Assembly: GCF_045037415.1 (NCBI RefSeq)
Contig: NZ_CP173439.1
DNA: 64,000 bases
Source of the DNA: Escherichia coli
Lineage (GTDB): Bacteria > Pseudomonadota > Gammaproteobacteria > Enterobacterales > Enterobacteriaceae
Reading direction: 5' to 3' (one strand)
The notes under the pieces were generated by a model that had not been told where the DNA came from, ran no database searches, and saw nothing but the letters and a program-made list of their open reading frames with translations. Position 1 is the first letter of the stretch. Each line of letters starts with the position of its first letter. Below are positions 2,367 to 30,505 of the stretch, piece by piece. The position numbers and the translations under genes were made by a program.

Positions 2367-2666
2367 GTGGAGCGGACAATCCAAATGGTGAATTACCGTC
2401 TTATATCACTGGCGCTGACAAACAGGGATATTGCGACAATTCACAGCAATATCGTGCAGGAATACAACACCCTTAAAGGGTATAGCTGGAAATGGCTGGG
2501 TGGGGTGTCAGTGGCTTTTCTGGTTATGTTCTGTGTGCTCGGATGGGGAATGAAAACAATACTCGACAGGAACTACAACGCCACAGCGGCGGTGTATCAG
2601 AAAGTTGTGACACTGGAAGATAAACTGGTGGAGAAACCTGTCACGGGGAAGAGCCGGAAAAACTGA
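2367..2666 (+). CDS. hypothetical small membrane protein
   Basis: 99-aa ORF with one hydrophobic segment (GGVSVAFLVMFCVLGWG); start uncertain, may overlap the IS end. Confidence 0.3.
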   Translation: MERTIQMVNYRLISLALTNRDIATIHSNIVQEYNTLKGYSWKWLGGVSVAFLVMFCVLGWGMKTILDRNYNATAAVYQKVVTLEDKLVEKPVTGKSRKN

Positions 2667-2731
2667 CGCGCTTCGCTTGTCCAACGCCTCACGACCCGCG
2701 AAAGAATTTCGCGAACCGTTCACTGTTTTTT

Positions 2732-2941
2732 TCAATATGATTCTGTCTGCTTTGGTCGATAAAGCAGACGATAGTATTCCAGCCTTCGTATATATAACGG
2801 TACGTGCTCATCAGTAAGAGCTGGCGGTATTGTGTTATCAGGGGGAAGTTTTTTCAGATACTCACGAAATGCCTGGCTTGATGCCATAAAATCTACAGCT
2901 GCATCGATAATATGTGGGATATTTTCATCTAATTTTGTCAT
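2732..2941 (-). CDS. hypothetical protein
   Basis: 69-aa ORF, convergent with 2367..2666; no recognised motif. Confidence 0.25.
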
Positions 2942-3450
2942 GATGATTGATCTGATATTATCACGGTTCGTGAATTATAGTATGTCACTATTATTTATGC
3001 TTTAGTGAACCAGAAAAAATCCCCCGTTGGTATAGGGGGATATGTAAGGAGAAATAACTTCGCAGGTGTTCTTGTTTGTATTATAACGTGAAAAGAATGC
3101 ACGCAACTTAATTAATCTGCCGTACTTCCTTTCAGTTTTCAAGATAAGGTTTATAATAAAACATGGAATGGAAGCAAGCTTTAAGGTTTCAGCTCTAAAA
3201 TTTTTAATATCTATTAACTAGCTAGTTGTTGTCCTTGTGAGCATGTTGTATATAAAAGCTAGGATAATATCCTGACCGGAGTATTCATATTCCTTATCCC
3301 CTCTGTGTTCTCAGAGGTTTTTTTCTGTATTTAATGATATGAGCTGGAATGCGATTCCGGCCCCCCCCGTTTACATAATTCTCCCTGACATACGGCACCG
3401 GAATCGCATTGATTTTGCATTGCTAATGTCTAACTGTGCTGGTGAATGTT

Positions 3451-3488
3451 GGGGGCAGTTTGGATATCGAAAATTATTGTACGTTAAG
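3451..3488 (+). repeat. 38-bp Tn3-family-type terminal inverted repeat (copy A)
   Basis: Starts GGGG, ends ACGTTAAG as in Tn3-family IRs; related copies at 5787, 13586, 27905. Confidence 0.75.
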
Positions 3489-3554
3489 GTTGTTTTTTGA
3501 CCTTGTCGGGGTCCGCCTGCGGGCAGTAGAGATCATATAAGGTATTCAATAACG

Positions 3555-3830
3555 TCATGATGCGGTTATCCCCGATACGGTAATATACCATTTTACCTGC
3601 CCGTCGGGTTCGACCAGCTTCAGGCGACGCATGACACCCAACTGCTGAGACAGGGTCGGCTGAGTGATACCGACCGCCGCTTCCAGCTCGGTCACATTCG
3701 CTTCCCCCTGGCTTAACTGACACATCAACAATAGCCGGTCGCTGTTGGCCAGTCCCCGTAGGACATCTGCTGCCCCCAGGGCTGCATTTTTCATATCAGT
3801 CTGACGTTTTGTGTCTTCATTCATGGGCAT
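3555..3830 (-). CDS. ArsR/SmtB-family transcriptional regulator (BigR/YgaV-like)
   Basis: Winged-HTH region LLLMCQLSQGEANVTELEAAVGITQPTLSQQLGVMRRLKLV; divergent from the CoADR-rhodanese gene; start codon uncertain. Confidence 0.7.
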   Translation of the reverse strand: MPMNEDTKRQTDMKNAALGAADVLRGLANSDRLLLMCQLSQGEANVTELEAAVGITQPTLSQQLGVMRRLKLVEPDGQVKWYITVSGITAS

Positions 3831-3990
3831 TGCTGGTTTCTTATATTATGTATTTTTATATAATATTGTTCAGTATAATGATAGTGGCGTAATTTTGCCA
3901 CCGTGATCTTCAGGTCTGCAGCGTCCAGCTGGACCGGGTAACTAATTATATATGGCAGATATTTTGCCCCGAGTGAACAGAGAGGATGTA

Positions 3991-5649
3991 ATGAAAATAG
4001 TGATTGTTGGTGGTGTTGCCGGGGGAGCATCCGCTGCAGCCAGGGCTCGTCGGTTATCAGAGGATGTCAGTATTGTTGTGTTTGAGCGGGGAAGCGATGT
4101 CTCTTTCGCCAACTGTGGATTGCCTTATCATATAGGCGGAAAAATTCCGTTACGGCAGTCGCTGATTCTGAAAACCCCGGAGGATTTTAAATCCCGTTTT
4201 AACATAGACGTCCGTATCCGTCATGAAGTGATGTCAGTAGACCCGGTTAATAAGATGGTGACGGTTAAAAATCTGACCTCCGGGGAGGTCTATACCGAAG
4301 AATGGGATCGTCTGCTCCTCAGTACCGGTGCCGCTCCGGTTGTTCCCCCCTTGCCCGGACTACAGGAAGCGGGTGTCTTTACACTGCGAAATCTTACTGA
4401 CATGGATGCTATCCAGGCGTGGATTGAGCAACATAATATCGCTCACACCACGCTTGTCGGGGGGGGATTTATCGGGCTCGAAGTGATGGAGGCACTGAGC
4501 GAAAGGGGGATCAGTGTGACCCTGCTGGAGATGGGGGAACAGGTTATGGCTCCGGTTGATCCTGAAATGGCATCGGCCCTGCATCAGGAAATCAGGAGTC
4601 ATGGCGTGGATCTGCGTCTCAGAACGGCGCTCACCGAGGTACTGCGGACAGAGACGGGATTCCGCGTTGCACTGTCTGACGGTGGGTTTCTGCAGACCGA
4701 CATGGTTATTCTCGCCATCGGGGTAAAACCTGAGAGCAGCCTTGCCACAGGAGCCGGGCTCGCCGTGGGTAAACGGGGAGGCATAAGTGTCAATGCCTGT
4801 ATGCAGACAAGTATCCCTGACATCTATGCCGTGGGGGATGCAGTTGAAACACCTGACCTTGTCTTTCAGGAACCCGCTAATGTTCCTCTGGCAGGGCCAG
4901 CCAACCGCCAGGGACGCATTGCTGCTGATAATATGCTCGATCGTCACAGCCTTTACCATGGCAGTCAGGGGACATCCATTTGTAAGGTATTTTCGCTGAG
5001 TATTGGCAGTGTCGGGGCGAATGAAAAGCAGCTGAAAGCCCATGGTACCCGATACGAGAAGGTTTACGTCCATGCCGCTGATCATGCCAGTTACTACCCG
5101 GGGGCAACAATGATCAGTCTGAAACTGCTGTTCAGCCCCGATACCGGTAAAATTCTCGGGGCCCAGGCGTCAGGGAAAAAAGGGGTTGATAAACGCATCG
5201 ATGTCCTGGCTGTCGTACAGCGCGCGGGGCTTACCGTTAACGATCTCGAGCATCTGGAGCTGACCTATGCTCCGCCTTTCAACAGTGCAAGGGACGTCGT
5301 TAACCAGGCTGGAATGGTGGCGGCAAATGTTATCAAGGGTGATACGGTCATCTGTCATGTCCGCGATGTGTTACAACGGGAACCGGGCAGTTATTGTTTA
5401 CTTGATATTCGTTCTCCTGCAGAACTGAAACAATTTGGTGAATATCCTGACGCGCTATCCATCCCTCTTGATTCCCTGCGGGAGAATCTTGATAAGTTGC
5501 CTGAAGATAAAGAGATTATTATCGGGTGTCAGAGTGGTCTGCGGGGGCATGTGGCATACCGTATGCTTCAGTCTCACGGCTTCCGGACATATAATCTGAG
5601 TGGTGGTTTTATAACTTGGCAGGCGGTTACGGAATCAATGAGTCAATAA
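3991..5649 (+). CDS. CoA-disulfide reductase-like flavoprotein with C-terminal rhodanese domain
   Basis: N-terminal FAD motif IVGGVAGGASAA, redox Cys in SFANCGLPY, second Rossmann fold GGGFIGLE, C-terminal rhodanese with active-site Cys in IGCQSGLRG; AGAGG RBS before ATG 3991. Confidence 0.8.
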   Translation: MKIVIVGGVAGGASAAARARRLSEDVSIVVFERGSDVSFANCGLPYHIGGKIPLRQSLILKTPEDFKSRFNIDVRIRHEVMSVDPVNKMVTVKNLTSGEVYTEEWDRLLLSTGAAPVVPPLPGLQEAGVFTLRNLTDMDAIQAWIEQHNIAHTTLVGGGFIGLEVMEALSERGISVTLLEMGEQVMAPVDPEMASALHQEIRSHGVDLRLRTALTEVLRTETGFRVALSDGGFLQTDMVILAIGVKPESSLATGAGLAVGKRGGISVNACMQTSIPDIYAVGDAVETPDLVFQEPANVPLAGPANRQGRIAADNMLDRHSLYHGSQGTSICKVFSLSIGSVGANEKQLKAHGTRYEKVYVHAADHASYYPGATMISLKLLFSPDTGKILGAQASGKKGVDKRIDVLAVVQRAGLTVNDLEHLELTYAPPFNSARDVVNQAGMVAANVIKGDTVICHVRDVLQREPGSYCLLDIRSPAELKQFGEYPDALSIPLDSLRENLDKLPEDKEIIIGCQSGLRGHVAYRMLQSHGFRTYNLSGGFITWQAVTESMSQ

Positions 5650-5786
5650 GAGATGAGGTGCCATACACATGGCACCTCATCTTCCAGATTCATTGAAAAC
5701 GTATTATATGGAATAGAAATCTACAAAAATAATTAACACCCTGGATGGTACCCTATTGCGATAATGTGGACTGTTCAAAAAACAGG

Positions 5787-5824
5787 CTTACCGTACAATA
5801 ATTCTCTATATCCAAACTGACCCC
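5787..5824 (-). repeat. 38-bp Tn3-family-type inverted repeat (copy D, inverted partner of A)
   Basis: Reverse complement GGGGTCAGTTTGGATATAGAGAATTATTGTACGGTAAG. Confidence 0.75.
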
Positions 5825-6880
5825 AATGTTCCTGAATGTAAATCTCCGTACAAAGATATCGTTGAGTTTTATATAATTCATTGTTTTTATTGTGTTTTGT
5901 TTTTTTTGGTTGTGCTGGTTTGTAGTTATAAAAAACCCCTGGGAATCCAGGGGTAGGTAAGGAAAACAAATGATACTCAGTTAGTGTTGCACTTTAAACG
6001 GGTTGAAGTATAACTCGTATTAAATGAGATGTTGAAAATAAGTGAAAACCATTGCTGGTTGCAATAGGGCAGTATGCGTAAAAAATAAATTTGTGATGCT
6101 TTTCAAAAAAACAATTAATACATGAATATTACAGCTCATATATTACAGTTTATAAAAAACTGTGTTTTATCTATTACATAGAGAAAAATTCTTATCCTGA
6201 GCTGTGAACTTGGTTGTTTCGTTTGATATATATCTTTGTAAATGTGGTTTATTATGCGGGCATTTTTTATTGAGTATTGAATCAGAATAAGTGATGCAGC
6301 TAAATTTATTTGCGTAACTATTTCATTGTCAATATTCTGACTCAATCTGACACCTATCGTTTCTCTTGGATTCCCCACTTTTGTGGTTTTTTATCCGGAA
6401 CGGGATAGTGCCAGTTGTTTTTTATCAGCCTCAGGGTATTTTGGGGCGGTTGCGAACATTGACGCATTCCACAACTAAAAAAAATTTCTCACAGACTCTG
6501 ATTCTTGCCCCGACCCTTGGTCGGTTTTTTTTTGTCCTGGCGAAACGTGAAGCTCTGAAACAGGAAACCCCGTCAGAGCGCCACGCACCAGGGGAGAAAA
6601 CTTGTCGTTTTGAGCCGTTCGGTGTTCAGAACGCACGAAACCGATCGCACATCGCTTTCGTGCATAGTTATGCAACGCCCTGAAAACGATTCTGACGCGT
6701 TTTTCTGGTTTGGCCTGGTGTTTTCTTGTCTTTTTGCGTTTTTTGCGCCAGAAAGCGATTGAGGGCGTTTTACATGGTACGTACAACGGGAGTTATGGTA
6801 AATGGATCGGGTTTTCGGGAAGGTTCGACAGGATTTGCCGTTGGGTGTAGTGTAAGCGACTGAAAAACAAACGCCCCTGA

Positions 6881-7579
6881 AATCATGTCCAGATCCGGCA
6901 GAACCAGCCTCATGCGCAGTTCTGGCTGGTTTTTGACGTTGATCGCGAGGGGGCAGCGATTGACTGGAGCGACCGGAACGCTCCCGCGCCGAACATCACC
7001 GTAAAAAATCCTGTGAACGGTCATGCTCACCTGCTCTACGCGCTCAATATCGCCGTGAGAACCGCGCCGGACAGCTCGGTTAAGGCGCTGAAATACGCCG
7101 CTGCGATTGAACGTTCGCTGTGTGAGAAACTTTGTGCTGATGTGAACTACAGCGGACTGATTTGTAAAAATCCGTTCCACCTGGAATGGCAGGTGATGGA
7201 GTGGCGAGAGGAAGCCTATACCCTCGATGAACTGGCTGATTATCTCGATTTGAGCGCCTCAGCGCGCCGTAGCATCGATAAACATTACGGGATGGGGCGA
7301 AACTGCCACCTGTTCGAAATGACGCGCAAATGGGCTTACAGGGCGATTCGTCAGGGCTGGCCCGAATTCTCACAGTGGCTTGATGCCGTGATTCAGCGTG
7401 TCGAAATGTACAACGCATCGCTTTCCGTTCCGCTTTCACCGCCTGAATGTCGGGCTATTGGCAAGAGCATTGCGAAATACACGCACAGGAACTTCACGCC
7501 GGAAACTTTCGCACAGTATGTGGCTGATACGCACACATTAACGTACGTTTTCGTTCCATTGGCCCTCACCCCCCGATAA
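6881..7579 (+). pseudogene. ColE2-type (primase-like) Rep initiator homolog with no recognisable N-terminus
   Basis: Frame is open from 6881 with no ATG until a GTG at 7013; motifs FWLVFDVD, KNPVNGHAHLLYAL, NPFH, GMGRNCHLF recalled as Rep/primase-like; preceded by about 1 kb of AT-rich non-coding DNA. Confidence 0.4.
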
Positions 7580-7747
7580 CGACCCAGGTAGCGCGCCGTA
7601 TTCCCCCCGCCGGCCGTTTTCTTCGACATGTACATCAGGCGCGGAACTCATCGGGGCGCGGGAATGAAATCCCATTCAGACTCCGGATAGATTCAAGCAA
7701 GCCCACTTATCGTCAAAATCGGTGTTGCAAAAACGGGAGTGACCATA

Positions 7748-7770
7748 GATCCGTTTTCCAAGCGGACCCC
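7748..7770 (-). repeat. Partial Tn3-family IR (outer 23 bp) matching the IR of the miniature element at 63603
   Basis: Reverse complement GGGGTCCGCTTGGAAAACGGATC equals the first 22-23 bp of the IR at 63603-63640. Confidence 0.6.
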
Positions 7771-7816
7771 ATAATATCGGCTGGTAAACATCACTCGCTA
7801 GTGCATTCTTTTTGTT

Positions 7817-7835
7817 GGTAATGATAATCATTTAC
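7817..7835. promoter_or_regulatory. Fur box upstream of chaN-like operon
   Basis: GGTAATGATAATCATTTAC resembles Fur consensus GATAATGATAATCATTATC. Confidence 0.6.
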
Positions 7836-7911
7836 ATTCATTCTTTGATGTTTTATCATAATTAATGTTTTGTCAATAAATATATGGAAACATATTGTTT
7901 CAGATGGGAAT

Positions 7912-8787
7912 ATGAGAAAGTTCATCCTTATTTCTATGATAACGTTAGCTAGTGTTAGTCTGGGAGCCTGCAGACAGAATGTCACCATAAAGCAGGATGC
8001 GCCAGGGCAGAAAGCTTTCCTGACTGACGGGCAGATTTACGATTTGCACAGTGGCAAAATTATTTCTAGCAGCGAGCTTTTGGCGGATCTTGCTACCGCT
8101 CAACATCTTATTATTGGTGAAAAACACGATAATGCCGAGCATCATCAGATTGAGCTTTGGCTTATTCAAAATTTGCTCATCCAGCGACCACAGGGGAGTG
8201 TGTTGCTTGAGATGTTGACGTCAGAGCAACAGCCCCGAGTTAACCAAGTTAAATGTTGGCTGAAAGATAATCCTGTGGTTCGAGATAGCCGTGTTCAGGA
8301 ACTACTTAACTGGCAAAAAGGGTGGTCCTGGGAGATGTATGGCGACATCGTCATGCAGCTATTACGTGGGCCTTACCCGCTGCTCAATGCCAACATTGGC
8401 CGGGAGCAGATATTGGCACTGTACAAAAAAAACGAATTTCCTAAAGGAAAAAAATCCACTGCACCTGTGGTACAAGAAGCTCTGCGTGAAACCATCATAT
8501 CTATGCATGAAGGCAACCTTGAAAGCCAGCAACTGACGTCAATGCTCTCTATTCAGCAGCAGCGGGATCGCTACATGGCCCGCCAGCTTCTGAGTGCCCC
8601 GGTACCGTCGTTGTTGATTGCAGGTGGTTATCACGCGTCAAAAAGCATGGGCGTACCGTTACACATGGAAGATCTTGCCACCGGCACCCATCCAGTGGTG
8701 TTGATGCTTGCAGAAAAAGGAATGAACATCACAGTAGATCATGCTGACTACGTGTGGTTTGTAGCGCCAGATACAACAAAAAGGTAA
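7912..8787 (+). CDS. ChaN-family (heme/iron-associated) lipoprotein
   Basis: Lipoprotein signal LASVSLGAC; GEKHD...EHH motif region typical of the ChaN family. Confidence 0.55.
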   Translation: MRKFILISMITLASVSLGACRQNVTIKQDAPGQKAFLTDGQIYDLHSGKIISSSELLADLATAQHLIIGEKHDNAEHHQIELWLIQNLLIQRPQGSVLLEMLTSEQQPRVNQVKCWLKDNPVVRDSRVQELLNWQKGWSWEMYGDIVMQLLRGPYPLLNANIGREQILALYKKNEFPKGKKSTAPVVQEALRETIISMHEGNLESQQLTSMLSIQQQRDRYMARQLLSAPVPSLLIAGGYHASKSMGVPLHMEDLATGTHPVVLMLAEKGMNITVDHADYVWFVAPDTTKR

Positions 8788-23970: not shown

Positions 23971-24007
23971 ACGTATCCTCTCGTCTAAAACAACGGCTAT
24001 ACAACGA

Positions 24008-25954
24008 TTATGGGTTATTTTTTATCGTCTCCCCGGGAACCGCGCTTTTGCGCCGCATCACCCACAGCGCCACCAGCGCCGCGAGCAGCAATACGACCTG
24101 CGGTAACAACGTTTCCACGTAGGGATAAATCCCCAGCCAGCTGATTTCAGGGAAGCCGTTAATCAACGTAGGCTGGAACAGTTTGCCTTCCACCAGTTCC
24201 AGAACGCCTTTGCCCGCAAAGACGAAGGCCATCAGATACATGAAACTGCCGGTAAACATAAAGAAGGGTTTCAGCGGCAGGCGCACTACTGAGTAACGCA
24301 TCACCAGCCAGGCGAGCAGCAGCACCACGCAGCCAATCACAAAACCGGCGCCAATCGCCATATGGCCGGATACCGTGTTTGCATCGCCAATCAGAGCGTA
24401 ATAGAACAGCACCGTTTCCGCCCCTTCGCGGTACACCGCCAGGAAGCTGGTCAGCCATAGTCCGACCAGGGAGCCTCGCGACAGGGAATGAGACAGTTTG
24501 CCTTCCAGCCAGGCTTTCCAGTGGCGCGCTTCCACTTTGGACAGCAGCCAGTAACTCATAAAGAACAGCATCACGACGGCAATCAGCATCGTTATGCCTT
24601 CCAGCAGTTCACGGCTGGCGCCGGAGTTAGTAAACAGCATCTGGAAGATAGCGGCGGTGATGACGCTGGCGATCAGCGCCACAATTACCGACTGACGAAT
24701 AAGCGGCAGCTTATCCTGATGGTTGTTTTTCACCATGTAGGCCACGATTGCCGCAACAATCAGCAGCGCTTCCAGCCCCTCGCGCACGATGATCATCAGA
24801 CTATAGAGCAGCAGACTCCACTGGGTTTCTTCGCCTTCGCCCAGCATCGTCACGGCTTTTTGCAGATCCTGCGCCAGCGCGCTGGCCTCTGCATTCAGGC
24901 GCTCAACCGGCTGACCGGCCTTCATCAGACTGACCAAGCGGGTAAAATACGCCTCCAGCGTGGTTTTAAATGCCGAATCGCGAGAGCCGATTTTGTTTTC
25001 CATGCCGCTGGCTTCGAAGCGGTCGAAGTAGGTATCCTGGATATCCAGAATCGCATTCTTCGCATCGCCGCCCTGATAGCGCGCTATCGCGTCCTGAATG
25101 CTCTGGTTAATTCCCGTCGTCACCTCAGCCCAGTCGGTGCGGTTATTTCCCTCGTCCGCCGCCGGAATGTTGTCTGCGCTTTGCGCTGCGGCAACCTGCT
25201 GATCGTCACGGGTGGTTGGCAAGCCGGGTAAGATATCCTCGATATCCTGTAGCAGCGTAGTGACCTGATAGGAGACATCGTTGAGATGGTCAGGTTGCGC
25301 GGTCAGCGCAATCAGGGATGAGAATTGTTGGTTAATGGAGGCGGCATCTTTTGCAGAACGGTTTTGTCTGAGGGACATCTCCATCTCAGAGTTTTTAAAG
25401 CCCTGATAGTGCGCCTGTTGAACGTGCTGACTGGCAACGCTGTAATTCCCGGCCTGATATTCAGTGACCGCCTGCGCCAGCAGATCGTCGATCGTCCTGA
25501 AACTCTCCTGCCAGTGAACGGCAATGTCGTCCCTGGACAGCGCGTTGTGCTGCTCTTCGGCCACCAGACGATGTCCGCCATCCAGCACCGGTTCCACTTC
25601 GCGCAGTGCGGCTTTCAGCCAGTCAATGCGCGCCTGGACGTCAGCGAGCGGTTTTTTCTCGCCAATCATTCGACGGATCTCGCCGAATGCGCTCTCCATC
25701 TCGTAACTTTTGCGCGCGGAAATGTTGATGCGGATCGGCCCTTCCAGGTTCTCGAACACCTCAAAATAGGCCATTTGTACCGTGCGGCGCGCCTCGTCGG
25801 CATGCTGTTGCTGATAAAGTTCCGCTGTTTTATCAAGACGTTGCTCGATATCTTCAATCAAAGGCGCATAATTCGTCGACGCCCAGACACTCATGCTTAT
25901 AAACAAGCCAAAGAGAGTAACCAACAAAGAGTTACGAAAGTTACGCACGTGCAC
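24008..25954 (-). CDS. Ftr1-family iron permease with N-terminal periplasmic domain (FetM-like)
   Basis: Signal peptide, about 350-aa periplasmic domain, then permease with two REGxE motifs (REGLEA, REGAET). Confidence 0.75.
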   Translation of the reverse strand: MHVRNFRNSLLVTLFGLFISMSVWASTNYAPLIEDIEQRLDKTAELYQQQHADEARRTVQMAYFEVFENLEGPIRINISARKSYEMESAFGEIRRMIGEKKPLADVQARIDWLKAALREVEPVLDGGHRLVAEEQHNALSRDDIAVHWQESFRTIDDLLAQAVTEYQAGNYSVASQHVQQAHYQGFKNSEMEMSLRQNRSAKDAASINQQFSSLIALTAQPDHLNDVSYQVTTLLQDIEDILPGLPTTRDDQQVAAAQSADNIPAADEGNNRTDWAEVTTGINQSIQDAIARYQGGDAKNAILDIQDTYFDRFEASGMENKIGSRDSAFKTTLEAYFTRLVSLMKAGQPVERLNAEASALAQDLQKAVTMLGEGEETQWSLLLYSLMIIVREGLEALLIVAAIVAYMVKNNHQDKLPLIRQSVIVALIASVITAAIFQMLFTNSGASRELLEGITMLIAVVMLFFMSYWLLSKVEARHWKAWLEGKLSHSLSRGSLVGLWLTSFLAVYREGAETVLFYYALIGDANTVSGHMAIGAGFVIGCVVLLLAWLVMRYSVVRLPLKPFFMFTGSFMYLMAFVFAGKGVLELVEGKLFQPTLINGFPEISWLGIYPYVETLLPQVVLLLAALVALWVMRRKSAVPGETIKNNP

Positions 25955-25970
25955 ACCGCCAAAGAATACA

Positions 25971-25988
25971 AATGATAATTATTATCAT
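25971..25988. promoter_or_regulatory. Fur box upstream of the Ftr1/P19 operon
   Basis: AATGATAATTATTATCAT, 17-35 bp upstream of the permease start. Confidence 0.55.
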
Positions 25989-26240
25989 ATCTTTTTGTCG
26001 CGTTGTACATGACCTGGATCATAAAAATGTCAGCAGACGACAAGTTATGTAAACTTATTTCATCAAATCGTGATGAACACACACATTATGCGTTGATAAA
26101 AGGGACGTTATCTCCCTGTTTTTCTCATGGAATTAACGGCAAGGCAGGCGCGGTAACAGAGGAATAAATCCCCCTGCCGACAGTGATATTATTCATTATC
26201 GGCAGGCAGAAATAAAACGCGTTATTGCGTACAGCAATAT

Positions 26241-27002
26241 TCAAAGATTAAGGTTATTTCGATCGCTGGCAAGACGCTGTAAGAATTGACCATATCCCTG
26301 CGGCCCCATCCAGTAGTTAATACTTTTCTCAACGCCGGTTGATGTCAACGTCGCACCGGAAATACCGTCAACGGTATATTCATCGGCATGTTCAGGTTTA
26401 TCCTGTACTATTTTCAATGCAGGATGTCCGCTGTTATCTAATAATCGTTTCCCTGGCCACTGTTTGCGCCAGTTGGCGTCTTCCACCCTAGCCCCCAGAA
26501 ACGGCGTTTCCCGTTGCTGATAATAATACAGATTTCTCACCGTACGACCGTCCAGCCCCAGAGCAAGAAACGCATGCATCATGGATTTCGCGCCCTTACC
26601 GGTAACTGGAATGATAACCTGCTGAATTTCATTATTTTTATCTTTCACAAAGAACACATCCGCCACCGTACAGCGCTGACGAACCTGCGCTGGGTCGCGT
26701 TCAGGGGCAAGTTTTTCACACTTCTGCCGCGCGGTGTCCGCGCTGCTGCCAGCCACCAGTTCGCCGGAATCTAAATTAACATGGCGTTGAATAATATAAC
26801 GATGATAGAGCGTTTCGACTGATTTTTTATCCTGGGTCTCTGATTTCATCAGGCCCGCAGCGTGTAAAATTGCCGCCTGTTTTTCCTCCTCTGTCGGCTC
26901 CGTCATTTCTCCCTGGAACAGCATAAACCATGCCGCCGCCGCAACAAAAATAAGGACACAAAGCACCATCATTGATGCAACAATAATTTTACCCTTGCGC
27001 AT
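26241..27002 (-). CDS. FMN-binding-domain protein (NqrC/RnfG-like), membrane-anchored
   Basis: N-terminal TM anchor; flavinylation-type motif VDGISGATLTSTGV. Confidence 0.6.
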   Translation of the reverse strand: MRKGKIIVASMMVLCVLIFVAAAAWFMLFQGEMTEPTEEEKQAAILHAAGLMKSETQDKKSVETLYHRYIIQRHVNLDSGELVAGSSADTARQKCEKLAPERDPAQVRQRCTVADVFFVKDKNNEIQQVIIPVTGKGAKSMMHAFLALGLDGRTVRNLYYYQQRETPFLGARVEDANWRKQWPGKRLLDNSGHPALKIVQDKPEHADEYTVDGISGATLTSTGVEKSINYWMGPQGYGQFLQRLASDRNNLNL

Positions 27003-27238
27003 TGAATTGTTATCCCTGTCAAAATGGAAATCGAAAAAATCGCCTGAACGTATCACAGACTTTCATTCAATTAAAACAGATATGCCATTATCAATTCAGG
27101 TTTGCAACGTCAGGCAGCGGTAAAAAATAATAACTGGCGTCGGTAAAAAAGCAGCAAAAATAACAGAAAACACGCTCTCCGCTCGTTTTACACATCCTTA
27201 CAATGGGTTAAAAAATGCCGGGTTTCCCCGGCACGCTA

Positions 27239-27745
27239 TCAAAACATGGCTGCCCGCCACAGACGTAACTTCATGCCCCAGTAGCTGGTCCAGCCGCTGG
27301 TCGTAGTTACCACCTGCCCCTTCGACACCACCACCAGCGTTGGCGTGACGCTGATTTCCCAGTTTCGTGATATCTCACCGCCGCTATCATTCACGACGGG
27401 GAACGTCACCCTTTTACGCGATAACCAGCGGGAAACCTCCCCGTCATTACCGGAACGCAGCGCGATGGTCATGACGCTCTCCCCTTCCGACTGCAAACGG
27501 GCGACATCCGGCGTGGTGAAACGGCAGATACCGCACCAGCTCGCCCAGAAGTAGAGCAGCACCGGGCGTTCTTCACTGATCGACGCCAGCGTTACGGTTT
27601 CCCCGTCCAGCGTATGCAGCGGCGTGCTGTCAAACATGGCCGGCATCTGCGGAGAACGCCAGACATCCAGCAGGATTATCACGCCAGCCAGCAGAACCAG
27701 TAAGATCGCGCCTTCACGCAGCCAGCGGCGCAGTTTACTGAGCAT
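27239..27745 (-). CDS. ScsD/TlpA-like thioredoxin-fold protein
   Basis: TM anchor plus WASWCGIC motif; rho-independent terminator (GCCGGGGAAACCCGGC then T-run) downstream. Confidence 0.7.
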   Translation of the reverse strand: MLSKLRRWLREGAILLVLLAGVIILLDVWRSPQMPAMFDSTPLHTLDGETVTLASISEERPVLLYFWASWCGICRFTTPDVARLQSEGESVMTIALRSGNDGEVSRWLSRKRVTFPVVNDSGGEISRNWEISVTPTLVVVSKGQVVTTTSGWTSYWGMKLRLWRAAMF

Positions 27746-27904
27746 GGGCCACCGCCAGTTTTTCTTTCACCACCGCCTCAAGGGTCTCCCACGATACCGC
27801 GCCGGGGATCATCTCGTCGCCAATGATGGTTGCCGGCGTCCCCTGAACGCCAACCAGCCGGGCGAGTTGCAGATTGGTGCTCAACGTCTCCATGCTTTTC
27901 TCAT
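27735..27904 (-). pseudogene. DsbA/ScsC-like thiol-disulfide oxidoreductase, C-terminal remnant
   Basis: C-terminal DsbA-like sequence GVQGTPATIIGDEMIPGAVSWETLEAVVKEKL overlapping the scsD-like start; 5' portion replaced by IR copy C. Confidence 0.6.
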
Positions 27905-27942
27905 CGGGGTCAGTTTGGATATAGAGAATTATTGTACTATAA
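27905..27942 (+). repeat. 38-bp Tn3-family-type IR (copy C, solo)
   Basis: GGGGTCAGTTTGGATATAGAGAATTATTGTACTATAAG, 36/38 identical to copy D. Confidence 0.75.
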
Positions 27943-28198
27943 GGGCTTCCCCGGCATGTCAACGCCGGTGTTTACGGTTTCTGTCTGCACTATAGTAAAA
28001 AAATAAAGGGGAGAGACTGCGGTACTATAAACGGTCATGATGAATCGTCATCGATTCGGACCCTGATGAAAGACGCTCGTGAGGCTCTAGTTCGTTAGTC
28101 GGGTACACTTGCCCTGTACAATAAGCAGATATACCTCACGGGGTCTAACCCTTTATCATCAACGAGTTGCAGATCAGATGGTCATACAGCTTTGTACT

Positions 28199-28512
28199 TT
28201 AGCTGGCTGAGTACAACCTGAAATCATCACCGTAATGCAATGATGCCCAGCACAGTCTTGCATTTTTGGCAGCGATGGCAACAACAGCGCGCCAGTATCC
28301 TCTGCGTTCGACCAGTGAGCAGACCCAACGACTGAATAAATCAGTCCTTTTCTCCGCCCCGATCAGTACCGAGCGGGCACCCTGAACCAGAAGTGTTCTC
28401 AGATACGAATCGCCAGCTTTCGTTATCCTGCCAAGCTTCGACTTTCCGCCGCTGCTGTACTGCGATGGTGTCAGTCCCAGCCAGGCTGCCAGCTGGCGCC
28501 CATTCTTAAAAT
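28199..28512 (-). pseudogene. IS110-family transposase C-terminal fragment, cut by IS26
   Basis: LGRITKAGDSYLRTLLVQGARS is typical of IS110/IS1111-family transposase C-termini; abuts the IS26 end at 28513. Confidence 0.55.
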
Positions 28513-29332
28513 GGCACTGTTGCAAAGTTAGCGATGAGGCAGCCTTTTGTCTTATTCAAAGGCCTTACATTTCAAAAACTCTGCTTACCAGGCGCATTTC
28601 GCCCAGGGGATCACCATAATAAAATGCTGAGGCCTGGCCTTTGCGTAGTGCACGCATCACCTCAATACCTTTGATGGTGGCGTAAGCCGTCTTCATGGAT
28701 TTAAATCCCAGCGTGGCGCCGATTATCCGTTTCAGTTTGCCATGATCGCATTCAATCACGTTGTTCCGGTACTTAATCTGTCGGTGTTCAACGTCAGACG
28801 GGCACCGGCCTTCGCGTTTGAGCAGAGCAAGCGCGCGACCATAGGCGGGCGCTTTATCCGTGTTGATGAATCGCGGGATCTGCCACTTCTTCACGTTGTT
28901 GAGGATTTTACCCAGAAACCGGTATGCAGCTTTGCTGTTACGACGGGAGGAGAGATAAAAATCGACAGTGCGGCCCCGGCTGTCGACGGCCCGGTACAGA
29001 TACGCCCAGCGACCATTGACCTTCACGTAGGTTTCATCCATGTGCCACGGGCAAAGATCGGAAGGGTTACGCCAGTACCAGCGCAGCCGTTTTTCCATTT
29101 CAGGCGCATAACGCTGAACCCAGCGGTAAATCGTGGAGTGATCGACATTCACTCCGCGTTCAGCCAGCATCTCCTGCAGCTCACGGTAACTGATGCCGTA
29201 TTTGCAGTACCAGCGTACGGCCCACAGAATGATGTCACGCTGAAAATGCCGGCCTTTGAATGGGTTCATGTGCAGCTCCATCAGCAAAAAGGGATGATAA
29301 GTTTATCACCACCGACTATTTGCAACAGTGCC
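28513..29332 (-). mobile_element. IS26
   Basis: 14-bp terminal repeats GGCACTGTTGCAAA at 28513-28526 and inverted at 29319-29332; 820 bp; Tnp26 ORF. Confidence 0.95.
28565..29269 (-). CDS. tnpA: IS26 transposase Tnp26
   Basis: 234-aa ORF starting MNPFKGRHFQRDIILWAVRWYCKYGISYRELQEM. Confidence 0.95.
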   Translation of the reverse strand: MNPFKGRHFQRDIILWAVRWYCKYGISYRELQEMLAERGVNVDHSTIYRWVQRYAPEMEKRLRWYWRNPSDLCPWHMDETYVKVNGRWAYLYRAVDSRGRTVDFYLSSRRNSKAAYRFLGKILNNVKKWQIPRFINTDKAPAYGRALALLKREGRCPSDVEHRQIKYRNNVIECDHGKLKRIIGATLGFKSMKTAYATIKGIEVMRALRKGQASAFYYGDPLGEMRLVSRVFEM

Positions 29333-30505
29333 ATTCTGAGCACTGTCGCGCTCGACGCTGTCGGCATCGGCCTGATTATGCCGGTGCTGCCGGGCCTCCT
29401 GCGCGATCTGGTTCACTCGAACGACGTCACCGCCCACTATGGCATTCTGCTGGCGCTGTATGCGTTGATGCAATTTGCCTGCGCACCTGTGCTGGGCGCG
29501 CTGTCGGATCGTTTCGGGCGGCGGCCGGTCTTGCTCGTCTCGCTGGCCGGCGCTGCTGTCGACTACGCCATCATGGCGACGGCGCCTTTCCTTTGGGTTC
29601 TCTATATCGGGCGGATCGTGGCCGGCATCACCGGGGCGACTGGGGCGGTAGCCGGCGCTTATATTGCCGATATCACTGATGGCGATGAGCGCGCGCGGCA
29701 CTTCGGCTTCATGAGCGCCTGTTTCGGGTTCGGGATGGTCGCGGGACCTGTGCTCGGTGGGCTGATGGGCGGTTTCTCCCCCCACGCTCCGTTCTTCGCC
29801 GCGGCAGCCTTGAACGGCCTCAATTTCCTGACGGGCTGTTTCCTTTTGCCGGAGTCGCACAAAGGCGAACGCCGGCCGTTACGCCGGGAGGCTCTCAACC
29901 CGCTCGCTTCGTTCCGGTGGGCCCGGGGCATGACCGTCGTCGCCGCCCTGATGGCGGTCTTCTTCATCATGCAACTTGTCGGACAGGTGCCGGCCGCGCT
30001 TTGGGTCATTTTCGGCGAGGATCGCTTTCACTGGGACGCGACCACGATCGGCATTTCGCTTGCCGCATTTGGCATTCTGCATTCACTCGCCCAGGCAATG
30101 ATCACCGGCCCTGTAGCCGCCCGGCTCGGCGAAAGGCGGGCACTCATGCTCGGAATGATTGCCGACGGCACAGGCTACATCCTGCTTGCCTTCGCGACAC
30201 GGGGATGGATGGCGTTCCCGATCATGGTCCTGCTTGCTTCGGGTGGCATCGGAATGCCGGCGCTGCAAGCAATGTTGTCCAGGCAGGTGGATGAGGAACG
30301 TCAGGGGCAGCTGCAAGGCTCACTGGCGGCGCTCACCAGCCTGACCTCGATCGTCGGACCCCTCCTCTTCACGGCGATCTATGCGGCTTCTATAACAACG
30401 TGGAACGGGTGGGCATGGATTGCAGGCGCTGCCCTCTACTTGCTCTGCCTGCCGGCGCTGCGTCGCGGGCTTTGGAGCGGCGCAGGGCAACGAGCCGATC
30501 GCTGA
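29294..30505 (+). CDS. tetA: Tet(A)-type tetracycline efflux MFS transporter, 5'-truncated by IS26 and in frame with an ATG inside IS26
   Basis: Sequence from LSTVALDAVGIGLIMPVLPGLLRDLV to GQRADR matches class A TetA; native first ~10 codons replaced by IS26-derived MISLSPPTICNSAI; function not established. Confidence 0.7.
   Translation: MISLSPPTICNSAILSTVALDAVGIGLIMPVLPGLLRDLVHSNDVTAHYGILLALYALMQFACAPVLGALSDRFGRRPVLLVSLAGAAVDYAIMATAPFLWVLYIGRIVAGITGATGAVAGAYIADITDGDERARHFGFMSACFGFGMVAGPVLGGLMGGFSPHAPFFAAAALNGLNFLTGCFLLPESHKGERRPLRREALNPLASFRWARGMTVVAALMAVFFIMQLVGQVPAALWVIFGEDRFHWDATTIGISLAAFGILHSLAQAMITGPVAARLGERRALMLGMIADGTGYILLAFATRGWMAFPIMVLLASGGIGMPALQAMLSRQVDEERQGQLQGSLAALTSLTSIVGPLLFTAIYAASITTWNGWAWIAGAALYLLCLPALRRGLWSGAGQRADR

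Follow-up and report, generated by a model that had tools for sequence, protein, structure and literature searches.

A transposase-less Tn3-family cassette with a putative reactive-sulfur module on Escherichia coli plasmids

The stretch of DNA analyzed here, referred to as the window, covers 64,000 nucleotides of Escherichia coli contig NZ_CP173439.1 (assembly GCF_045037415.1). Close to its left side, at positions 3451-5824, two divergent genes are enclosed by a pair of inverted repeats (IRs) of Tn3-family form. One of the genes encodes a regulator of the ArsR/SmtB family and the other a fusion of a coenzyme A (CoA)-disulfide reductase (CoADR) with a rhodanese. Taken as a whole, the unit is, in our view and with high probability, best explained as a non-autonomous Tn3-family cassette of the mobile insertion cassette (MIC) type, in which two ends of ~53 bp enclose only a two-gene reactive-sulfur module. 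The cassette and its immediate surroundings comprise the following features.

2421-7536, no strand: captured Col156-type (pMG828-4-like) segment that holds the cassette (blastn against NC_008489), flanked by an IS21 insertion sequence (IS) copy (350-2319) and a Tn3-family IR (7537-7574)
3445-3450, no strand: left copy of the target-site duplication AATGTT, read directly; the same flanks occur in pMG828-4, eight assemblies and 14 metagenome contigs
3451-3503, + strand: left transposon end of the Tn6901/TnEc1 tnpA-end type, made up of the 38-bp IR (3451-3488) and ~15 nt of conserved inner sequence; identical at 51 of 53 positions to the end of a transposon in plasmid pNE_JUE7
3484-3831, - strand: ArsR/SmtB-family, BigR/SqrR-like regulator gene, frameshifted in the window (structure matches, NCBIfam and base-level comparisons)
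3843-3866, no strand: AT-rich palindrome ATATTATGTA-N4-TATATAATAT, a candidate operator that overlaps a promoter-like -10 hexamer
3991-5649, + strand: CoADR-rhodanese fusion gene (552 aa), Npsr-like NAD(P)H persulfide reductase (PDB, Pfam and NCBIfam matches)
5651-5682, + strand: perfect hairpin with a 14-bp stem directly past the stop codon of the reductase gene, likely the transcript end (repeat search)
5750-5824, - strand: right transposon end, including the 38-bp IR (5787-5824); its outer 54 nt (5771-5824) equal nt 1-54 of MITESen1, with a weaker likeness to about nt 75
5825-5830, no strand: right copy of the direct repeat AATGTT, read directly

The two IRs are GGGGGCAGTTTGGATATCGAAAATTATTGTACGTTAAG at 3451-3488 on the + strand and GGGGTCAGTTTGGATATAGAGAATTATTGTACGGTAAG at 5787-5824 on the - strand, which are identical at 34 of 38 positions. 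Both direct reading and a repeat search confirmed this inverted pair, as first described in an initial annotation of the window made from the sequence. The repeat search extended the arms to 57 nt with 86% complementarity (3444-3500 and 5775-5831), and an IR-pair match was obtained in none of 100 shuffles. The termini follow the Tn3-family form GGGG...ACG(T/G)TAAG over ~38 bp. Between the IRs, the list of open reading frames holds the regulator gene (3484-3831, - strand) and the reductase gene (3991-5649, + strand), and no further frame of the length of a Tn3-family transposase; tblastn found no match to a Tn3-family TnpA or resolvase anywhere in the 64-kb window. Both analyses thus agree with the original description of a unit holding passengers without transposase or resolvase. 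The cassette is 2374 bp long in the window versus 2375 bp in every complete copy measured elsewhere.

The strongest evidence that this segment has moved as a unit comes from copies located by means of the cassette-specific form of the regulator, whose C-terminus ends in DPDKVKKQP. Two assemblies retrieved by this look-up (L012 and L015) share with the window exactly the segment 3451-5824 (2375 nt, 99.7% identity) and nothing beyond it, so that homology ends at the outer G of each IR. In both assemblies the unit is bordered on either side by a perfect 5-bp duplication, TTAAC. We rebuilt the corresponding empty site from the flanks and a single TTAAC; this 800-nt query matched PLSDB records at 800 of 800 positions among the matches listed, and in all 314 records showed 99% identity or more. 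The TTAAC site falls within a DUF3800 gene that is intact in IncI-type plasmids like pSal8934a. The IR-to-IR unit of L012 and L015 thus represents an insertion event independent of the one in the window; here the target duplication is 5 bp and the empty site has been verified. The idea of a mobile cassette without a transposase, put forward in the initial annotation, is thereby borne out. That annotation had also reckoned that confinement to one fixed context with no flanking duplication would speak against mobility; a second context, with the TTAAC duplication, was found.

At the site in the window, a direct repeat of 6 bp, AATGTT, abuts both IRs (3445-3450 and 5825-5830). It had been read earlier as lying directly outside both IRs, which is correct, and as reflecting an expected 5-bp duplication, which does not apply to this site. 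The five bases next to the cassette are unequal on the two sides (ATGTT versus AATGT), and the duplication must be 6 bp long because the boundaries of the element are fixed by L012: these leave AATGTT, and not ATGTT, on both sides. For Tn3-derived non-autonomous elements, repeats of 5 bp and sometimes of 6 bp have been reported (PMC13367494).

Comparison of the surroundings revealed how the cassette reached its present position in the window. Positions 2421-6561 are 99.5% identical over 4.1 kb to the 7.46-kb Col156-type plasmid pMG828-4 (NC_008489; blastn), and two more pieces of the pMG828-4 Rep region, which is rearranged here, continue up to 7536. The left neighbor of this segment is the IS21 copy, identified by its proteins, and the right neighbor is the IR GGGGGGTGAGGGCCAATGGAACGAAAACGTACGTTAAT (7537-7574), which we take to resemble the Tn1000/IS101 type. 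An IR of this kind would fit capture of the Col156 fragment through a cointegrate. Beyond 7574 lies a haem/TonB receptor cluster whose last gene aligns with the gene that AMRFinderPlus calls senB in CP077244, and the arrangement of the cluster is that of IncF plasmids such as CP077244 (99.9% identical). These comparisons show that the insertion at AATGTT took place in a Col156 backbone and that the IncF virulence-type plasmid gained the cassette passively, within a captured piece of ~5 kb. Since the insertion occurred in the Col156 plasmid, this copy is uninformative on transposase activity on the present replicon.

AATGTT and Col156 flanks surround nearly all the copies examined, namely those in 25 PLSDB records, 30 complete E. 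coli genome records, 14 metagenome contigs and eight of ten assembly loci. A search of metagenomes with a 44-mer of the left junction revealed no additional insertion site, all 14 matches being in the Col156 context. Col156 relatives at 71-77% identity, for example pJJ1886_2, cross the insertion point uninterrupted. From this distribution one could argue for an immobile relic, with IRs left from a decayed transposon or from two unrelated insertions, that has spread only with Col156 plasmids and by recombination of larger segments. All copies other than those in L012 and L015 do share one Col156 context with AATGTT flanks, the copy in the window was clearly carried in passively, and the cognate transposase is absent from the window as judged by tblastn. 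However, the unit in L012 and L015 is delimited by its IRs to the base, within an unrelated gene, and has a 5-bp duplication and an empty site present in hundreds of plasmids. Recombination of larger segments would not yield such boundaries, and we consider an immobile relic improbable and largely refuted in favor of a cassette that has transposed between its IRs.

The ends of the cassette point to the group of transposons from which they derive. The left end is identical at 51 of 53 positions to the end of a 6.9-kb Tn3-family transposon in plasmid pNE_JUE7 (L006). This transposon has IRs of 53 nt that are 94% mutually complementary, and its tnpA product scores 1127 bits against the NCBIfam Tn3-family transposase model NF033527 (cut-off 500). 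It also encodes tnpR (a serine recombinase) and a frmR-frmA-VOC-fghA cargo. Transposons of this type have been named Tn6901, Tn6399 or Tn7489 and confer formaldehyde resistance; their 47-bp IRs are near-identical to those of TnEc1 (preprint 10.1101/2022.09.12.507718). The right end matches nt 1-54 of MITESen1 at 54 of 54 positions in its outer part, with weaker similarity up to about nt 75. MITESen1, which has an entry in ISfinder, is a Tn3-derived miniature element of 256 bp; we took its sequence from Table S2 of a 2026 survey of such elements, known as TIMEs (PMC13367494). Judged by sequence likeness, the cassette IRs belong to the MITESen1/TnEc1/Tn6901 group. The IR type, which had seemed unfamiliar in the initial annotation, is in fact a known one. 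Moreover, this annotation had proposed to look for a full transposon with the same IRs, and an autonomous Tn3-family element with near-identical ends exists.

This IR type is widespread, and 5000 or more PLSDB plasmids contain a match. Some 640 PLSDB plasmids, mainly of Klebsiella, Escherichia and Enterobacter, encode a TnpA with 90% identity or more to the Tn6901-like protein, so that a possible helper is often available in this plasmid pool. Homology of the cassette to the autonomous transposon is confined to the ~53-bp ends. The intergenic region between tnpA and tnpR of the Tn6901-like transposon, which contains the putative res site, gave no match in the cassette above chance, and the cassette is therefore without a detectable res. 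A 17-nt match to this intergenic region was evaluated as a possible res site and discarded, as it was no better than those of shuffles. Classification of the cassette as an autonomous Tn3-family transposon was likewise rejected, given the lack of tnpA, tnpR and res.

The nature of the right end raises another possibility, that of a TIME-derived composite (TIME-COMP), i.e., an element bounded by two complete copies of MITESen1, as has been reported with tet(A), qnrS1 and floR. In favor of this, the cassette equals MITESen1 over 54 nt at its right end, with partial likeness to about nt 75; MITESen1-bounded composites are known from Enterobacteriaceae plasmids; and in one plasmid (L031) a full MITESen1 copy lies on each side of tet(A)-adjacent DNA. 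In the cassette, however, there is one IR per end, with no inner IR and no 256-bp element; its left end (~53 nt) is closer to the Tn6901-type end than to either end of MITESen1; and an ancestral form with complete MITESen1 on both sides of the genes is not among the records listed. We therefore regard a TIME-COMP as highly improbable as a description of the present structure. It may describe the origin of the element. A cassette with a single transposon end on each side accounts for the structure seen in the window.

Two further observations concern MITESen1 itself. The segment from about nt 121 to 166 is identical at 34 of 45 positions to 11125-11170 of L006, in the tnpA-tnpR intergenic region with the putative res, with a score of 40 compared to a maximum of 24 among 300 shuffles. 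In the 2026 survey, MITESen1 was found to have no similarity to the res sites of Tn3, Tn21 or Tn1721 (PMC13367494). MITESen1 may carry a res that belongs to its own transposon group. The 5.9-kb tet(A) plasmid p663Rt_4 (L031) holds its two complete 256-bp copies in direct orientation at 1849-2104 and 4905-5160, which may be a TIME-COMP-like arrangement.

Other Tn3-family ends occur in the window. The initial annotation had noted the same IR type at 13586 and 27905. The recurrence holds (13586-13623 and 27906-27943, both in the same orientation), but the two IRs are of a different sub-variant, ending in ACTATAAG rather than ACGTTAAG, and have no matching target duplication (AAGTA versus GATGA). 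In CP077244 (L003) the two ACTATAAG-type IRs face each other across IS26 (22287-24207), and at the boundary of IS26 the window departs from this plasmid by a rearrangement in which 25408-29335 is inverted. A degenerate Tn3/Tn2-like IR, GAGGGCTGACGCTCAGTGGAACGAAAACTCACGTTAAG, is located at 13519-13556, 30 bp upstream of the IR at 13586; since the two differ and have the same orientation, two Tn3-family ends are stacked here. The segment 7630-7775 matches the ends of the IS5075 and IS4321 copies of an Enterobacter plasmid (L002) with 92-94% identity. It borders directly on a Tn21-type IR tip (GGGGTCCGCTTGGAAAACGGA, the reverse complement of 7750-7770) and seems to be what is left of an IS that had inserted into an IR of the Tn21 family. 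Finally, a Tn3-family IR, GGGGGCCGCTTGGAATTCGGAAAATAAACCACGTTAAG, lies at 63849-63886 on the - strand, and the homology of the cvaA/cvaB colicin V export region to the two best-matching plasmids extends no further than the outer end of this IR (63886). That the cassette is an internal part of a larger known transposon, its repeats not being termini, is scarcely credible: the IR type is very common and other Tn3-family IRs lie nearby (7537-7574 and 13519-13556), but the two insertion contexts are homologous precisely as far as the outer G of either IR, and homology with IR-less versions of the genes ends just inside the IRs.

These IR-less versions suggest where the cargo came from. The same gene pair occurs at ~93% identity, and without these IRs, on E. 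coli chromosomes (e.g., NZ_CP030768, 870480-872680) and on large plasmids of Enterobacter, Citrobacter and E. coli (e.g., 5974-8144 of the Enterobacter plasmid L002, where it adjoins dps, the PaaI thioesterase gene paaI, and nifB/X-like and DUF134 genes). Homology to these loci stops just inside each transposon end, and the IR-less regulator-reductase locus is the likely source of the cargo. We rejected the reading of the L002 region as a larger IR-bounded unit flanked by IS5075 and IS4321: its IR tips face outward, and the region is DNA between two Tn21-family transposons.

The regulator has 115 aa in other copies, and its nearest solved structures are Xylella BigR (3PQJ, E 1.9e-22) and Rhodobacter SqrR (6O8L). 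C37 and C102 of the intact protein align with the two redox-sensing cysteines of BigR and SqrR, and the ArsR/SmtB winged-helix model NF033788 matches it with 77.6 bits (cut-off 55). Transposon-end sequence supplies nine codons at the left junction in place of the final ten codons of the regulator gene; the stop codon of the intact gene (TAA, 3484-3486) falls inside the IR motif ACGTTAAG, and Cys102, which lies just upstream of the junction, is kept in intact copies. In the assembly collection, 2534 blocks contain the resulting cassette-specific protein.

In the window, a C is missing after 3609. This 1-nt deletion shifts the frame after codon 74 and leaves a 91-aa open frame (3555-3830), whose product is devoid of the wing, the C-terminal helix and Cys102. 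Base-by-base comparison, which included an IR-less homologue, showed that the deletion (3609/3610) is not present in pMG828-4, CP077244, pRHBSTW-00309_3 or the IncI-context copy of L012. One copy in a multimeric small-plasmid assembly is likewise annotated as frameshifted, and because of this the frameshift in the window may be a sequencing error. Altogether, it may represent either a real loss of the repressor or an error of sequencing. A genuine deletion would leave the reductase derepressed and constitutively expressed.

The reductase (552 aa) gave full-length matches to three structures: 3NTA (E 2.5e-204), which we take to be Npsr of Shewanella loihica, the PDB record being titled only 'FAD-dependent pyridine nucleotide-disulphide oxidoreductase'; 3ICR (E 1.5e-173; 'Coenzyme A-Disulfide Reductase'), presumably CoADR-RHD of Bacillus anthracis; and 8A56 (E 3.3e-152; 'Coenzyme A-persulfide reductase'), which we assume to be from Enterococcus faecalis. 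Its Pfam domains are Pyr_redox_2, Pyr_redox_dim and Rhodanese. The single active-site Cys of the oxidoreductase domain (Cys42, motif SFANCGLPY) and the Cys of the C-terminal rhodanese loop (Cys513, motif CQSGLRG) are both present and line up with those of the templates. Together, the fusion protein and the BigR/SqrR-like regulator would form a sensor and reductase module for reactive sulfur species. Within the divergent intergenic region, the palindrome at 3843-3866 (two arms of 10 nt around N4) is a candidate operator.

From these results we can outline how the cassette may move and act. A Tn6901/TnEc1-type TnpA, supplied from elsewhere in the cell, would bind both inverted ends and thus mobilize the cassette in trans. 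Replicative transposition would then duplicate 5, sometimes 6, bp of the target. Because the cassette lacks res and a resolvase, the resulting donor-target cointegrate would need host recombination and would be resolved by RecA-dependent homologous recombination between the two 2.4-kb copies. The copy in the window inserted once into a Col156 plasmid, at AATGTT, and was later carried into the IncF plasmid with the ~5-kb capture. As for the cargo, the repressor would keep the divergent promoter closed until persulfides cross-link its two cysteines and cause its release, after which the reductase would use NAD(P)H to clear the persulfides or polysulfides of CoA and further ones of low molecular weight.

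Several points weigh against the interpretation of the unit as a mobile reactive-sulfur cassette. The two IRs differ at four of 38 positions, and the action of one transposase on this pair is something that we infer. An exact empty site for the AATGTT insertion was not found with 800- and 360-nt junctions in PLSDB, a 360-nt junction in complete E. coli genomes or an exact 25-mer in JGI metagenomes, so the 6-bp duplication there is read from the flanks. Among the 25 PLSDB records, 30 complete-genome records, 14 metagenome contigs and 10 assembly loci there are only two insertion sites, and movement is therefore rare, with any present-day activity being conjectural. No cassette-mediated cointegrates were seen among these copies; two records with two cassette copies each (10.9 and 14.3 kb) were considered as such and turned out to be small-plasmid multimers, one of them an incomplete linear record. 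Regarding the cargo, its function is assigned by homology. The regulator scores 95.9 bits against the NCBIfam BigR equivalog cut-off of 155, and the reductase 490.9 bits against the CoA-disulfide reductase equivalog cut-off of 578.8, the latter being expected for the fusion subfamily. As both proteins fall under these cut-offs, we refer to them as BigR/SqrR-like and Npsr-like and not as members of these families.

A more far-reaching scenario is that the cassette is an active hitch-hiker on Tn6901/TnEc1 transposases that spreads a defence against persulfide and H2S stress among plasmids of gut and urinary E. coli, that its res-less cointegrates fuse small Col plasmids with large conjugative ones, and that the loss of the repressor in the window is an adaptive switch to constitutive expression and not a sequencing error. 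Taken together, these propositions are doubtful.

The kind of element is already known, Tn3-type ends having been documented before in both MICs and TIME-derived composites, and the cassette leaves knowledge of Tn3-family transposition itself unchanged. The unit and its cargo appear to have been undescribed so far: in open-access papers and bioRxiv we found no description of this unit, only a mention from 2012 of a 'putative NADH oxidase gene' in pMG828-4. Because no transposase is encoded in them, non-autonomous Tn3-derived elements are missed by annotation pipelines. The 2026 survey considered such elements to be under-counted, and its scope was restricted to antibiotic resistance cargo (PMC13367494). 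The cassette shows the non-autonomous Tn3 mechanism moving a physiological module and not a resistance gene. It also lends itself to testing: there are two insertion sites, the empty form of one of them is known exactly, a candidate transposase can be named and induction would offer a simple phenotype to assay.

Among known systems, the closest in form are the Tn3-family MICs, which reportedly include the TALE/mlt cassettes of Xanthomonas (related to TnXax1) and the qnrS2 cassette of Aeromonas. Like these, the cassette has one Tn3-type IR per end, passengers only, neither transposase nor resolvase, a short target duplication and presumed mobilization in trans. Unlike them, its IRs are of the MITESen1/TnEc1/Tn6901 group, its cargo is a reactive-sulfur pair in place of virulence or resistance genes, and its hosts are Col156, IncF and IncI plasmids of E. 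coli. With MITESen1 and the TIME-COMPs that it bounds (Gomi & Yano 2026, PMC13367494, which does not mention the cassette), it shares the non-autonomous character, duplications of 5 or 6 bp, the same plasmid pool and, at the right end, nt 1-54; it differs from these composites in having no complete miniature elements, a left end of the transposon (tnpA-end) type and a cargo other than antibiotic resistance. The terminal repeats of Tn6901/Tn6399/Tn7489 and TnEc1, of ~47-53 bp, are near-identical to its own (51 of 53 positions at the left end), whereas these transposons encode TnpA and TnpR with an intergenic putative res, none of which the cassette has, and carry another cargo. The predicted reductase resembles Npsr of S. 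loihica, CoADR-RHD of B. anthracis and the CoA-persulfide reductase of E. faecalis in the conservation of both putative catalytic cysteines, and the predicted repressor resembles the persulfide-sensing repressors BigR, SqrR and YgaV in both putative sensing cysteines; domain architecture agrees and sequence matches are strong for enzyme and repressor alike. In contrast to those enzymes and repressors, the genes of the cassette are plasmid-borne within a transposable unit, and the C-terminal tail of the repressor consists of transposon-end sequence.

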